Below, piece after piece: positions 1,109-45,779 of a stretch of 64,000 nucleotides of DNA. The stretch lies in NCBI RefSeq assembly GCF_044324875.1, contig NZ_CP172185.1. The stretch is one strand, 5' to 3'. The position numbers and the translations under genes are program-made. This DNA comes from Escherichia coli. GTDB lineage: Bacteria > Pseudomonadota > Gammaproteobacteria > Enterobacterales > Enterobacteriaceae. Position 1 is the stretch's first letter. Every line of letters starts with the position of its first letter. Under the pieces are notes generated by a model that saw nothing but the letters and a program-made list of their open reading frames with translations, was not told the DNA's origin and searched no databases.

Positions 1109-1795
1109 TTATTTGGTGATATTTTTTTCAATATCATGCAGCAAACGGTGCAACATTGCCGTGTCTCGTTGCTCTAAAAGCCCCAGACGTTGTTGTAACC
1201 AGTCGACCAGTTTTGTGTCATCTGCCACTGCCAGAGTCGTCAGCAATGCCATGGCTCGTTCGCGTAAAGCTTGCAGTTGATGTTGGTCTGCCATTGTGTC
1301 ACTTTTCGCCGGTTGTTGTATTAATGTTGCTAATTGATAGCAATAGACCATCACCGCCTGCCCCAGATTGAGCGAAGGATAATCCGCCACCATCGGCACA
1401 CCAGTAAGAACGTCAGCCAACGCTAACTCTTCGTTAGTCAACCCGGAATCTTCGCGACCAAACACCAGCGCGGCATGGCTCATCCATGAAGATTTTTCCT
1501 CTAACAGCGGCACCAGTTCTACTGGCGTAGCGTAGTAATGATATTTCGCCCGACTGCGCGCAGTGGTGGCAACAGTGAAATCGACATCGTGTAACGATTC
1601 AGCCAGTGTCGGGAAAACTTTAATATTATCAATAATATCACCAGATCCATGTGCGACCCAGCGGGTGGCTGGCTCCAGGTGTGCCTGACTATCGACAATC
1701 CGCAGTTCGCTAAACCCCATCGTTTTCATTGCCCGCGCCGCTGCCCCAATATTTTCTGCTCTGGCGGGTGCGACCAGAATAATCGTTATACGCAT
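1109..1795 (-). CDS. lasT: SpoU/TrmH-type RNA methyltransferase (228 aa from internal Met)
   Basis: ORF 1109..1816; protein MRITIILVAPARAENIGAAARAMKTMGF...; position between thrL and arcA matches K-12 yjtD. Confidence 0.8.
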   Translation of the reverse strand: MRITIILVAPARAENIGAAARAMKTMGFSELRIVDSQAHLEPATRWVAHGSGDIIDNIKVFPTLAESLHDVDFTVATTARSRAKYHYYATPVELVPLLEEKSSWMSHAALVFGREDSGLTNEELALADVLTGVPMVADYPSLNLGQAVMVYCYQLATLIQQPAKSDTMADQHQLQALRERAMALLTTLAVADDTKLVDWLQQRLGLLEQRDTAMLHRLLHDIEKNITK

Positions 1796-2194
1796 ATTGC
1801 CACTCTTCTTGATCAAATAACCGCGAACCGAGTGATCACTGTCAACTTATTACGCGGTGAGAATTTACAAATTCTTAACGTAAGTCGCAGAAAAAGCCCT
1901 TTACTTAGCTTAAAAAAGGCTAAACTATTTCCTGACTGTACTAACGGTTGAATTGTTAAAAAATGCTACATATCCTTCTGTTTACTTAGGATAATTTTAT
2001 AAAAAATAAATCTCGACAATTGGATTCACCACGTTTATTAGTTGTATGATGCAACTAGTTGGATTATTAAAATAATGTGACGAAAGCTAGCATTTAGATA
2101 CGATGATTTCATCAAACTGTTAACGTGCTACAATTGAACTTGATATATGTCAACGAAGCGTAGTTTTATTGGGTGTCCGGCCCCTCTTAGCCTG

Positions 2195-2335
2195 TTATGT
2201 TGCTGTTAAAATGGTTAGGATGACAGCCGTTTTTGACACTGTCGGGTCCTGAGGGAAAGTACCCACGACCAAGCTAATGATGTTGTTGACGTTGATGGAA
2301 AGTGCATCAAGAACGCAATTACGTACTTTAGTCAT
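2195..2335 (-). CDS. yjjY: Small protein YjjY (46 aa)
   Basis: Hand translation of minus strand: MTKVRNCVLDALSINVNNIISLVVGTFPQDPTVSKTAVILTILTAT*; below the ORF-track size cutoff; between lasT and arcA. Confidence 0.65.
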   Translation of the reverse strand: MTKVRNCVLDALSINVNNIISLVVGTFPQDPTVSKTAVILTILTAT

Positions 2336-2430
2336 GTTACGCCGATCATGTTAATTTGCAGCATGCATCAGGCAGGTCAGGGACTTTTGTACTTCCTGTT
2401 TCGATTTAGTTGGCAATTTAGGTAGCAAAC

Positions 2431-3147
2431 ATGCAGACCCCGCACATTCTTATCGTTGAAGACGAGTTGGTAACACGCAACACGTTGAAAAGTATTTTCG
2501 AAGCGGAAGGCTATGATGTTTTCGAAGCGACAGATGGCGCGGAAATGCATCAGATCCTCTCTGAATATGACATCAACCTGGTGATCATGGATATCAATCT
2601 GCCGGGTAAGAACGGTCTTCTGTTAGCGCGTGAACTGCGCGAGCAGGCGAATGTTGCGTTGATGTTCCTGACTGGCCGTGACAACGAAGTCGATAAAATT
2701 CTCGGCCTCGAAATCGGTGCAGATGACTACATCACCAAACCGTTCAACCCGCGTGAACTGACTATTCGTGCACGCAACCTGCTGTCCCGTACCATGAATC
2801 TGGGTACTGTCAGCGAAGAACGTCGTAGCGTTGAAAGCTACAAGTTCAATGGTTGGGAACTGGACATCAACAGCCGTTCGTTGATCGGCCCTGATGGCGA
2901 GCAGTACAAGCTGCCGCGCAGCGAGTTCCGCGCCATGCTTCACTTCTGTGAAAACCCAGGCAAAATTCAGTCCCGTGCTGAACTGCTGAAGAAAATGACC
3001 GGCCGTGAGCTGAAACCGCACGACCGTACTGTAGACGTGACGATCCGCCGTATTCGTAAACATTTCGAATCTACGCCGGATACGCCGGAAATCATCGCCA
3101 CCATTCACGGTGAAGGTTATCGCTTCTGCGGTGATCTGGAAGATTAA
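2431..3147 (+). CDS. arcA: Aerobic respiration control response regulator ArcA
   Basis: 238 aa; [36 protein letters not shown]... receiver domain plus OmpR-type winged helix. Confidence 0.97.
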
Positions 3148-3160
3148 TCGGCTTTACCAC

Positions 3161-3196
3161 CGTCAAAAAAAACGGCGCTTTTTAGCGCCGTTTTTA
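3161..3196. terminator. Bidirectional rho-independent terminator between convergent arcA and creD
   Basis: aaaaaaaacggcgct-tttt-agcgccgtttttatttt: GC stem flanked by A-run and T-run. Confidence 0.6.
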
Positions 3197-3206
3197 TTTT
3201 TCAACC

Positions 3207-4559
3207 TTATTTCCAGATACGTAATTCATCGTCCGTTGTAACTTCTTTACTGGCTTTCATTTTCGGCAGTGAAAACGCATACCAGTCGATATTACGGGTC
3301 ACAAACATCATGCCGGCCAGCGCCACCACCAGCACACTGGTTCCCAACAACAGCGCGCTATCGGCAGAGTTGAGCAGTCCCCACATCACACCATCCAGCA
3401 ACAACAGCGCGAGGGTAAACAACATGCTATTGCGCCAGCCTTTCAATACCGCCTGCAAATAAATACCGTTCATTAACGCCCCAATCAGACTGGCGATTAT
3501 CCATGCCACGGTAAAACCGATATGTTCAGAAAGCGCCAGCAAGAGCAAATAAAACATCACCAATGAAAGCCCCACCAGCAAATATTGCATTGGGTGTAAA
3601 CGTTGCGCGGTGAGCGTTTCAAAAACAAAGAACGCCATAAAAGTCAGTGCAATCAGCAGAATGGCGTACTTAGTCGCCCGGTCAGTTAATTGGTATTGAT
3701 CGGCTGGCGTCGTTACTGCGACGCTAAACGCCGGGAAGTTTTCCCAGCCGGTATCATTGCCTGAAGCAAAACGCTCACCGAGATTATTAGCAAACCAGCT
3801 GCTTTGCCAGTGCGCCTGAAAACCTGACTCGCTAACTTCCCGTTTGGCTGGTAGAAAATCACCTAAAAAACTGGGATGCGGCCAGTTGCTGGTTAAGGTC
3901 ATTTCGCTATTACGCCCGCCAGGCACCACAGAAAGATCGCCGGTACCGCTTAAATTCAGGGCCATATTCAGCTTCAGGTTCTGCTTCCGCCAGTCCCCTT
4001 CAGGTAAAGGGATATGCACGCCCTGCCCGCCTTGCTCTAACCCGGTGCCGGGTTCAATGGTCAGCGCCGTTCCGTTAACTTCAGGCGCTTTCACCACACC
4101 AATACCACGCGCATCCCCGACGCTAATCACAATAAATGGCTTGCCTAAGGTGATATTTGGCGCGTTGAGTTCGCTAAGACGCGAAACATCGAAATCGGCT
4201 TTTAGCGTTAAATCACTGTGCCAGACCTGACCGGTATAAATCCCTATCTTGCGTTCTTCCACGTTCTGATTGCCATCAACCATCAATGACTCAGGTAACC
4301 AAAAATGGATAAAACTTCGTTTCCGCTCCACGGTTTTATCCTCTTCCTGCACCGTATAAAGCTCGGTCACAGGAATAGCGATGAGCGGCCCAACGAGTTT
4401 TTGCGGCCCGCTGGTACTTTGGCGAATCGCATCTTCCACATCGCTACGGTAATCAGCACGTTCGACAATCACCTGCCGAATCAGCATTATCGGAATCAAC
4501 AACAGCAATACTGCACCAAACAGGGTGGTCATTTTCCAGAACAGGGGGGATTTCAACAT
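3207..4559 (-). CDS. creD: Inner membrane protein CreD
   Basis: 450 aa; membrane protein downstream of creC in creABCD order. Confidence 0.9.
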   Translation of the reverse strand: MLKSPLFWKMTTLFGAVLLLLIPIMLIRQVIVERADYRSDVEDAIRQSTSGPQKLVGPLIAIPVTELYTVQEEDKTVERKRSFIHFWLPESLMVDGNQNVEERKIGIYTGQVWHSDLTLKADFDVSRLSELNAPNITLGKPFIVISVGDARGIGVVKAPEVNGTALTIEPGTGLEQGGQGVHIPLPEGDWRKQNLKLNMALNLSGTGDLSVVPGGRNSEMTLTSNWPHPSFLGDFLPAKREVSESGFQAHWQSSWFANNLGERFASGNDTGWENFPAFSVAVTTPADQYQLTDRATKYAILLIALTFMAFFVFETLTAQRLHPMQYLLVGLSLVMFYLLLLALSEHIGFTVAWIIASLIGALMNGIYLQAVLKGWRNSMLFTLALLLLDGVMWGLLNSADSALLLGTSVLVVALAGMMFVTRNIDWYAFSLPKMKASKEVTTDDELRIWK

Positions 4560-42565: not shown

Positions 42566-43243
42566 TTAATAGGGATGCAACACATTACTTGCTTCGCAAT
42601 GCCGCATACATAACAGAATATCTGCGGCCTCCAACAACCCTGCATCAGAACTGACGCCCAGTTTCGACATCACATTAAATTTATGTGCACGGATCGTTTT
42701 GATATTGCGTTTAAGCTGCTCGGCAATTTGTGTCATTGAGTAGCCACGCGACATAAAGCGCAATATTTCTCTCTCCGTCGGGCTTAGCGTTCGGCTTTGA
42801 TTAATGTACCACTGATTGTTCAGTCGGTCGGTCGCCTGACGTACACCATTTAATGACAAAAAGAGTTCCTGATGAAAAATCTCCAGCGTTGACGCTTTAC
42901 TTAATACACCGTCCAGCGGTGATGGCGACAATGAACCAATCAGCCGAGCTTCAATATCATCATCCGCAATAACTAAACGCCGGGTACGCGGAAACTTAAT
43001 CGCCAGTTCAGTCAGGCAAGATAATCCCTCTCTGCGCTCACTTCTCATGGCAGAAAAAGAAAAAATGACCGCCGCAAACGAGATCCGCGACATGGCATCC
43101 TGAAATGACTCCTGACTGGTATAGGTATGGAGCTTATAAGGGTTACCCGCAAACTTTCTGAATAAACTCTCAATACCGATACTACTCATGACGCATTTTT
43201 CTATGAGTGCGACATTTCTCTTCTTAATTCGGCTGTGTTCCAT
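42566..43243 (-). CDS. bglJ: LuxR-family transcriptional regulator BglJ
   Basis: 225 aa; C-terminal LuxR HTH ([25 protein letters not shown]); start may be at a downstream Met since the ORF overlaps yjjQ by 43 nt. Confidence 0.85.
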
Positions 43244-43926
43244 TCTGCGGCATCTCCATAAACAGAAGGCAAGTTAAGTTCTCTTGCACCCTGCGCGCTA
43301 TTTATCCATGCATACATTTCAGCGTTGCTGTGAATTGCCAGTCGACGCATCGCACTGTTTTTTTGGGCGCTGATAGTTTTATTACTTTTCTTAAGCAATG
43401 AAGCTATCTGGTTGATGCCCCATCCTTTACCTAATAGCCGCAGTACCTTGCGCTCTGAAAGAGTGAGAATGACGGAGCGATAGCTAAAATCATGAGTTTC
43501 AGTCATTGCCGGAGAGGTCAGCATGGCGCTGATACGCTCTGCGTGCGTATTACCGGAACGTACGGTCTTGACCAGATTCTCAATGGGTTCAACATCAGAC
43601 AATAACGTCGCCGTAGGGCACATGAGCAATTCTACTGCCTGGGAATACCAGGATCGTGACACCATGAAAACCCAGTGAATTTCCCGATATTGTGAGATTA
43701 AAGAATAATAATGTTCACAAACAGAACGTGGATCTTCACTTTCACCGGCTAAATCAGCAATGACTAATCCGGAACGACGTAATTGTAATAAGGTAAGGTC
43801 CTCCGCAGAGGCGCTGGATATTATTTCATATTCAGGGAAGTGAGTCCTCATGACCTCTTTTAACCCTGCTTGCATAACAGGTATTTTACTGATAACAATT
43901 CCATTTTTGCAGCATCCTGGCAACAT
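43201..43926 (-). CDS. yjjQ: LuxR-family transcriptional regulator YjjQ
   Basis: 241 aa; C-terminal LuxR HTH ([23 protein letters not shown]). Confidence 0.88.
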
Positions 43927-44544
43927 ATTTCCTCCACATCCACTGTCTAAAAATTATGATGGTTTATTCAGGATATTCATTCCTTAAATGTTTCCAGCAA
44001 ATTAATAGATTAAGCGAATAAATTATCCTTAGCATTCACTTTCATATCAGCATACTCCTGCTGCACAACAACTCCACTGCATGTGTCAGAAGGTTAGCAT
44101 CAAATGATAACCTGGTGAAATAGCCTGGAGACATTTAAAATATCTACATTAAGTTGTTAGAAATACTTAATGAAAAACAGAATTCTCATTCATTTAATTT
44201 ATAATTAACTGATATCCCTTCCAGTAGAATGCAAAATCACACAATCAATATTTATTCAATAAAATCTGATAGTTTTAACTTGTAAAAATTAAAAAACGCG
44301 CCCAGTTATCTTTTATCCTGATTCGTAAAGGCTAAACAATAAATTTATTATAGTGATAATATTCATGTGATAATTTGTTTGCGGCGAGAGATAATTCGCT
44401 TTTTATCACCGAGCTTCTCCCGATAACCAGGATTAATCAGCGCAATTTTGATCTTAACCTACCGCAAAACAACCGTGCTTCATGATACAAATGGATTCTC
44501 ATTATCTGAACAATACGCAGCACGTCTATGACAAAGGGCGAGTT

Positions 44545-45315
44545 ATGCAAACTGAGCAACAGCGAGCCGTAACACGGCTTTGTATCCAGTGTGGATTATT
44601 TCTTTTGCAACATGGTGCGGAAAGCGCGTTGGTTGATGAGCTTTCCTCACGACTGGGTCGGGCGTTGGGGATGGACAGCGTCGAAAGTTCTATCTCTTCG
44701 AACGCCATAGTGCTGACAACCATTAAAGATGGGCAATGCCTGACATCGACACGTAAAAATCAAGATCGCGGCATTAATATGCATGTGGTGACTGAAGTCC
44801 AGCACATTGTGATTCTGGCGGAGCACCATCTGCTGGATTACAAAGGCGTAGAGAAACGATTTAGCCAAATTCAGCCATTACGTTACCCAAGATGGCTGGT
44901 AGCCTTAATGGTTGGCCTTTCTTGTGCCTGTTTCTGTAAACTCAATAAAGGTGGCTGGGATGGTGCCGTCATCACCTTCTTTGCCAGTACGGTCGCGATG
45001 TATATCCGCCAGCTGCTGGCACAACGTCATCTTCATCCACAAATCAACTTTTGCCTCACCGCTTTCGCCGCCACCACCATTTCCGGTTTGCTTTTGCAAC
45101 TCCCCACTTTCAGCAATACCCCCACCATTGCGATGGCCGCCAGCGTTCTGCTGCTGGTGCCGGGCTTTCCGTTGATTAATGCCGTCGCCGATATGTTTAA
45201 AGGCCACATCAATACCGGACTGGCACGCTGGGCGATCGCCAGTCTGCTGACACTGGCTACCTGCGTCGGCGTAGTGATGGCACTGACGATTTGGGGGCTA
45301 CGCGGATGGGTGTGA
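44545..45315 (+). CDS. yjjP: Membrane protein YjjP (succinate exporter subunit)
   Basis: ORF 44482..45315; 256 aa from [30 protein letters not shown]... Confidence 0.85.
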
Positions 45316-45779
45316 TCGAATTTCTGTTAGCGTTGGCGCAGGATATGATCCTCGCCGCCATTCCTGCGGTCGGCTTTGCGATGGTGTTCAACGTTCCCGT
45401 TCGGGCGTTACGCTGGTGTGCGCTGCTTGGCTCGATAGGTCATGGTTCCCGAATGATCTTAATGACCAGCGGGCTGAATATTGAGTGGTCAACTTTTATG
45501 GCTTCTATGCTGGTCGGCACCATTGGTATTCAATGGTCGCGCTGGTATCTGGCGCATCCGAAAGTGTTTACCGTGGCGGCCGTTATCCCTATGTTCCCGG
45601 GCATATCGGCTTATACCGCAATGATTTCGGCGGTAAAAATCAGCCAGTTAGGTTACAGCGAACCGTTGATGATTACCCTGTTAACCAACTTTCTTACAGC
45701 TTCATCGATTGTTGGTGCGTTATCCATCGGTCTTTCCATTCCTGGATTATGGTTGTACCGCAAGCGCCCTCGCGTATAA
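45306..45779 (+). CDS. yjjB: Membrane protein YjjB (succinate exporter subunit)
   Basis: ORF 45291..45779; 157 aa from [31 protein letters not shown]... Confidence 0.85.

Follow-up and report, generated by a model that had tools for sequence, protein, structure and literature searches.

The closest described system is the region between yjjQ-bglJ and yjjP in Escherichia coli K-12; of the two regulators encoded beside it, YjjQ represses flhDC and is linked to APEC virulence, and BglJ acts with RcsB as an activator of bgl, leuO, and further loci. Stratmann, Madhusudan & Schnetz 2008 (J Bacteriol 190:926; doi 10.1128/JB.01447-07, PMC2223560) is cited for the findings that H-NS represses both divergent units in K-12 and that LeuO relieves the H-NS repression of yjjQ-bglJ (PMC5025477, PMC3950696, PMC4264507). 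Among these citing papers, PMC5025477 describes yjjQ-bglJ as H-NS-repressed and LeuO-activated, with repression dominant and the operon staying OFF, and reports that the LeuO/BglJ feedback loop was irrelevant in laboratory conditions. PMC3950696 states that an hns stpA mutant would express yjjQ-bglJ, and according to PMC4264507 H-NS at yjjQ-bglJ is counteracted by LeuO.

The K-12 spacer is independently listed in Table 1 of Shimada 2014 (PMC3946193) as a type-A spacer (yjjP/yjjQ), where both an RpoD-holoenzyme SELEX site and H-NS binding (HNS) are marked for it; the promoters predicted there are ATGAAA-17-TTTAAT for yjjP and CTGATA-17-GATAAT for yjjQ-bglJ. It shares this status with other long, H-NS-bound divergent spacers from genomic SELEX, for example nanC/fimB and stpA/alaE, which the same table also classes as type A and for which it likewise gives RpoD and HNS entries, and the difference from them is limited to the specific regulators (LeuO and MarA at yjjQ/yjjP). 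In ETEC H10407, a MarA ChIP-seq peak was found at yjjP<>yjjQ, and the box gcatcaaatgataac was bound in vitro at 0.3 uM (Sharma et al. 2017, PMC5684230). Furthermore, independent IS2, IS1, and IS5 insertions arose 185, 111, and 256 bp upstream of yjjP in the mouse gut (Lourenço et al. 2016, PMC5094792), where the selection coefficient for yjjP-region mutants was approximately 0.03-0.05 and aerobic yjjP expression rose approximately 2-fold in the tested IS1-insertion clone; the IS2 allele upstream of yjjP was used later as a known adaptive mutation (PMC7064181). H-NS repression, LeuO derepression, SELEX binding of H-NS and RNA polymerase, MarA binding, and IS effects have all been demonstrated in K-12 or ETEC.

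A further system of the same type is the bgl operon, which is H-NS-silenced and is activated by IS insertions, LeuO, and BglJ-RcsB. Like the bgl control region, the yjjQ/yjjP region has AT-rich silencer DNA beside a weak promoter, and both LeuO and IS elements inserted between promoter and silencer relieve its repression (PMC5094792, PMC3950696). Unlike bgl, a single silencer tract serves two divergent promoters, and the IS effect is modest, being about 2-fold on yjjP.

Here, we analysed the corresponding locus of an E. coli genome within a stretch of 64,000 nucleotides (hereafter the window). Gene annotation was transferred from the best-matching RefSeq genome, that of E. coli strain MEI003 (99.4% identical), and defined the spacer and its flanking genes as follows:

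42566-43243, minus strand: bglJ, overlapping the 3' end of yjjQ by 43 bp (NCBIfam BglJ equivalog, 383 bits; annotation)
43201-43926, minus strand: yjjQ, a LuxR/GerE-type regulator gene, first in the yjjQ-bglJ operon (RefSeq annotation; Pfam GerE HTH)
43927-44544, no strand assigned: yjjQ/yjjP intergenic regulatory region, 618 bp, 32.9% GC (annotation transfer and composition)
44545-45315, plus strand: yjjP, encoding a ThrE-family membrane protein with a ThrE domain, annotated in K-12 as "putative succinate exporter" (annotation; domain match)
45306-45779, plus strand: yjjB, second gene of yjjP-yjjB (NCBIfam equivalog, 325 bits; annotation)

In the wider neighbourhood, the transferred annotation places fhuF, yjjZ, and three tRNA-Leu genes on one side and dnaT, dnaC, yjjA, and opgB on the other. 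A preliminary description of this DNA, made from the letters alone, had proposed a gap of about 620 bp at 43927-44544 between divergent yjjQ-bglJ and yjjP, flanked by a LuxR-type regulator operon and by the transporter genes yjjP-yjjB. Both points are borne out: the gap is exactly 618 bp by annotation, as it is between yjjQ and yjjP in K-12 MG1655, BglJ and YjjB match equivalog models, YjjQ carries a GerE HTH, and YjjP has a ThrE domain. The gap had also been called unusually long; on a crude ORF map, 618 bp is long but is not the longest gap of the window. The alignment of the NCBIfam BglJ model begins at residue 19 of the annotated 225-aa bglJ ORF (42566-43243). The annotated bglJ start may thus be too far upstream, in which case the 43-bp overlap with yjjQ would be shorter.

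The yjjP-side boundary of the spacer deserves comment. The longest yjjP ORF begins with an ATG at 44482 and would shrink the gap to 555 bp, which is reportedly the spacer length stated in the abstract of the 2008 K-12 study. Cross-genus alignment showed that this extension is not open in Salmonella or Citrobacter and that its ATG falls within a promoter-like block that is itself conserved; position 44545, on the other hand, has a conserved ATG with a conserved AGGGCGAG just before it. Since the extension is unconserved in both genera, 44544 is the better end of the spacer, and a start at 44545 with the 618-bp definition is preferable to 44482 with 555 bp.

At the other end of the analysed DNA, the 3' end of the window (59535-63451) is accessory DNA that follows btsT (yjiY) and yjiA and lies at what we take to be the place occupied in K-12 by the mrr/hsd immigration control region. 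Its products include a 699-aa GmrSD-type (DUF262/DUF1524 + DUF5655) type IV restriction-like protein (PADLOC Orf5, 706 bits) and a 244-aa protein that matches Fic below threshold; an ORF resembling the BrnA antitoxin is also present. An AT-rich segment at 62891-63116 is present in only 114 of 5426 complete E. coli genomes.

The base composition of the yjjQ/yjjP spacer is extreme for the window. Its GC content is 32.9% against 51.7% for the window as a whole, and no 618-bp stretch in the 64 kb is lower; an AT content this high is reached by only 0.29% of the possible 618-bp windows, every one of them overlapping the yjjQ/yjjP locus. GC reaches its minimum of 25% in the central 200 bp (44100-44299), and the abstract of the 2008 study is said to place H-NS binding at the spacer centre. 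TpA steps number 57 (window mean 26.9, sd 7.6), and there are 12 A/T tracts of at least 4 nucleotides where 6.3 are expected by length. AT content far over the genome average across hundreds of base pairs is what characterizes H-NS-silenced regulatory DNA. The 10-bp high-affinity H-NS nucleation motif TCGATAAATT, which reportedly goes back to Lang et al. in 2007, has no match with up to one mismatch within the 618-bp spacer. With 2 mismatches, 4 matches were found in 618 bp against approximately 0.75 expected by length, a weak enrichment that arises because the spacer is AT-rich, composition alone being sufficient. Repeats in the spacer were limited to short, chance-level matches. The preliminary description had called the region very AT-rich and typical of H-NS-silenced DNA; the composition supports the first statement, and the second agrees with the H-NS repression and LeuO relief published for the K-12 copy and with its HNS mark in Shimada 2014. 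The promoter fusions in hns and leuO backgrounds that it put forward as a check have largely been published for K-12 already.

A spacer of such AT content, beside yjjQ and bglJ genes whose GC also lies under the genome average (approximately 42-50% in 200-bp windows), might be taken for recent foreign DNA, that is, an island including yjjQ-bglJ on which H-NS acts as a xenogeneic silencer. The distribution of the locus makes this origin very improbable. Positions 43400-45000 were matched in 5424 of 5426 complete E. coli genomes, and in a cross-genus survey (a YjjP scan with one genome per species, giving 80 Enterobacteriaceae loci) yjjQ was located divergently upstream of yjjP in 75 of the 80 species representatives, including Escherichia, Salmonella, Citrobacter, Enterobacter, Klebsiella, Kosakonia, and others. 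In every surveyed locus reaching that far, bglJ follows yjjQ. Neither the patchy distribution nor the absence at the same locus in relatives that defines a genomic island was observed, and the conserved family-wide arrangement therefore argues that the spacer is not recently acquired foreign DNA. Rather, the divergent yjjQ/yjjP arrangement with an AT-rich spacer is ancestral to the Enterobacteriaceae.

Within this arrangement, the spacer itself takes different forms. It is short and AT-rich in 52 of the 80 loci (347-709 bp, median 457 bp; median GC 36% vs 51% for the locus), and in 23 loci, from Klebsiella, Raoultella, Kluyvera, and some Citrobacter, approximately 2.6 kb is inserted between yjjQ and yjjP. 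In Klebsiella (K. pneumoniae locus, 1141-3223), the insert holds genes for an AraC-type regulator and for an FAD-dependent monooxygenase, which at a guess are a pobR/pobA-like pair. In the loci with the 2.6-kb insert, AT-rich DNA remains on the yjjQ side. Alignment across genera revealed conserved blocks at 44014-44030, 44131-44150, and 44448-44491, with the core between them unalignable or deleted.

Promoter-like sites are more numerous in the spacer than in shuffled sequences (8 vs 3.6 +/- 1.8). The two genes diverge and each has a cross-genus conserved block beside it, and with this excess of promoter-like sites the spacer has the make-up of a divergent promoter region. The following features were recognized inside it:

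44014-44030, no strand assigned: block GCGAATAAATTATCCTT, which includes the predicted yjjQ -10 and is shared with Salmonella and Citrobacter
44022-44050, minus strand: predicted sigma-70 promoter of yjjQ-bglJ, CTGATA-17-GATAAT (from the scan; identical string in Shimada 2014 Table 1)
44097-44111, plus strand: MarA box GCATCAAATGATAAC, identical to the 15-mer of the ETEC H10407 ChIP-seq site and present as a single exact copy in the window
44131-44150, no strand assigned: AT-rich block ACATTTAAAATATCTACATT, a putative factor site conserved across genera
44155-44380, no strand assigned: AT-richest core, 23.9% GC, polymorphic, presumed H-NS nucleation tract; it contains all 20 differences from K-12 and is unalignable between genera
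44170-44198, plus strand: promoter-like ATGAAA-17-TTTAAT, listed for yjjP in Shimada 2014, 347 nt upstream of the yjjP ATG in the non-conserved core
44448-44491, plus strand: yjjP-proximal block TTGATCTTAACC...GCTTCATGATACAAA, conserved in Escherichia, Salmonella, and Citrobacter
44483-44491, plus strand: predicted extended -10-like TGaTACAAA in the yjjP-proximal block

Judging from position and conservation, the promoter-like site at 44170-44198 is probably not the main yjjP promoter, and the block at 44448-44491 is likely to comprise the yjjP core promoter and a regulator site. When projected onto the window, the mouse-gut IS2, IS1, and IS5 insertions fall at approximately 44360, 44434, and 44289, respectively, so that all three have the AT-rich trough on one side and the conserved yjjP-proximal block on the other. 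Such positions would be expected if the insertions cut the yjjP promoter off from the silencer, as at bgl.

Insertions at this locus are also found in natural isolates. One isolate (NZ_LR536430.1, 3120-4340) has the IS3-family element ISSen4 at window position 44042-44045, between the predicted yjjQ -10 and -35, and another (NZ_CP040390.1) has IS1 at 44606-44615, in the 5' end of yjjP. In NZ_CP102675.1, IncI1 conjugation genes abut the spacer core with a junction at window position 44322, reflecting either an integrated plasmid or an assembly error. A match split within the yjjQ-proximal part of the spacer was seen in approximately 25 E. coli genomes.

An unusually long gap may also hide an unannotated gene, such as a small RNA, a riboswitch or leader, a small protein, or a decayed remnant of genes kept by other genera. 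The yjjQ-proximal 228 bp are about 7-fold more conserved than synonymous sites, and Klebsiella, Raoultella, and Kluyvera do have two genes between yjjQ and yjjP. Nevertheless, the conserved blocks are already explained by known promoter and regulator sites, and we give a hidden gene very little credence. An Rfam scan of the spacer returned no match at E<=1, and the folds of the putative yjjQ and yjjP leaders and of the sole terminator-like hairpin (44383-44400) were not better than those of shuffled sequences (z +0.4 to +0.9); the spacer showed neither the covariance match nor the extra-stable fold of a structured non-coding RNA. ORFs lying wholly or mainly inside it are only 21-40 aa long and are broken by indels in sister Escherichia species. 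Descent of the spacer from the Klebsiella AraC-type regulator and FAD-monooxygenase genes was considered separately and rejected, tblastn having found no trace of them in the spacer or the window.

We therefore return to the spacer as a shared control region and to its comparison with the K-12 copy. The K-12 yjjQ-bglJ/yjjP region (Stratmann 2008) is the orthologous locus, with the same flanking genes, the same 618 bp, and identical promoter-proximal parts. The two spacers are 96.8% identical and equal in length, and their 20 substitutions all lie at 44161-44373; no difference occurs in the initial 234 bp or in the final 171 bp. The MarA box, the promoter-proximal parts, and the predicted -10/-35 elements are unchanged. 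We see no reason against the published regulation applying here, and we infer that the window's copy would behave like that of K-12, with its promoters at the positions predicted above. Unlike the K-12 region, the window carries the 20 core substitutions and belongs to a minority haplotype (approximately 13% of complete genomes lie within 5% of it vs approximately 44% for the K-12 type). Its core has 23.9% GC vs 28.3% in K-12, at a divergence of 8.8%.

The variability of the core extends across E. coli. We counted complete genomes by their identity to the window in the core, in the adjacent yjjQ-proximal segment, and in a control spacer of similar composition:

44155-44380, core (5419 genomes): at least 99% identity in 245; 95-99% in 459; 90-95% in 3868; 80-90% in 844
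43927-44154, adjacent yjjQ-proximal 228 bp (5418 genomes): at least 99% identity in 4761 (88%); 95-99% in 656; 90-95% in 1; 80-90% in 0
1860-2085, control AT-rich spacer (5423 genomes): at least 99% identity in 4918; 95-99% in 505; 90-95% in 0; 80-90% in 0

The control is a 29% GC intergenic segment by the thr/arcA end of the window that is almost invariant in E. coli. Among 12 aligned strains, nucleotide diversity (pi) was 6.7% in the core, 0.8% in the left part of the spacer, and 0.9-2.5% in the genes. Core haplotypes form at least 3 families that are 7-10% apart, and the numbers of genomes within 5% of each core type were 704 for the window, 2384 for K-12, 1833 for O157, and 1042 for the related MS1737. 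The haplotypes are discordant with their flanks, the K-12 and O157 cores being 8.0% apart at a flanking-gene dS of 0.015. The K-12 core is found 100% identical in strain DSM 30083 = ATCC 11775, which we take to be a phylogroup-B2 strain.

Deep haplotype families that are discordant with their flanks, next to an adjacent segment and an equally AT-rich control that are both at least 99% identical in most genomes, could indicate functionally different regulatory alleles that set the silencing strength for yjjQ-bglJ and/or yjjP and spread by recombination; the host-informative SNP markers obtained from the spacer (PMC11267920) point the same way. Weighed against this, the core has a mean JC divergence of 0.072 where the flanking genes have a dS of 0.055, a ratio of only about 1.3 even though the strains were picked to span core diversity, and neutral drift and ordinary recombination suffice for this. 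Moreover, in other genera the core either fails to align or has been deleted, and every haplotype keeps 24-29% GC. We regard regulatory alleles as unlikely, the neutral-rate comparison not favouring them. The more specific form, in which the haplotypes would be recombining alleles with lineage- or host-specific H-NS thresholds for YjjQ/BglJ and the YjjPB exporter and the window's would be the tightest silenced, is slightly more doubtful still. Were it true, the rare and most AT-rich haplotype of the window (23.9% GC) would be the most tightly silenced one.

The simplest reading of the core polymorphism is that composition is constrained and sequence is free, the core changing at a roughly neutral rate and being shuffled by ordinary recombination. 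A stronger claim, that the core is a mutation or recombination hot spot, was rejected because the ratio of core to synonymous divergence is only about 1.3 and because the polymorphism of the spacer has already been exploited for source tracking. Indeed, variability of this spacer within E. coli is likewise not new: the yjjP-(yjjQ-bglJ) spacer has already yielded host-informative SNP markers for microbial source tracking (PMC11267920).

Taken together, we conclude with a probability of about 0.9 that 43927-44544 is a shared, bidirectional control region of yjjQ-bglJ and yjjP-yjjB that is silenced by H-NS and relieved by LeuO. In the proposed mechanism, the promoter of each unit would lie in the conserved block adjoining its own gene, and the AT-rich tract of approximately 220 bp between the blocks would be free in sequence with its composition kept. 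H-NS, with StpA, would bind this AT-rich DNA and spread or bridge, and both promoters would be nearly off in laboratory conditions. LeuO, acting at several sites in the spacer, would counter H-NS at the yjjQ promoter or promoters, and MarA has a tightly bound site nearer to yjjQ. IS elements that insert between core and yjjP promoter relieve yjjP in part and are beneficial in the mouse gut.

The original observation of an H-NS-silenced intergenic region is correct and was already known, the region having been characterised in 2008 and often revisited since. Our analysis adds that the silencer core appears to be constrained in composition only and that the promoter-proximal blocks are under strong purifying selection. 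As published work has established, the region governs two LuxR-type regulators and a putative succinate exporter whose up-regulation is beneficial in the mouse gut.
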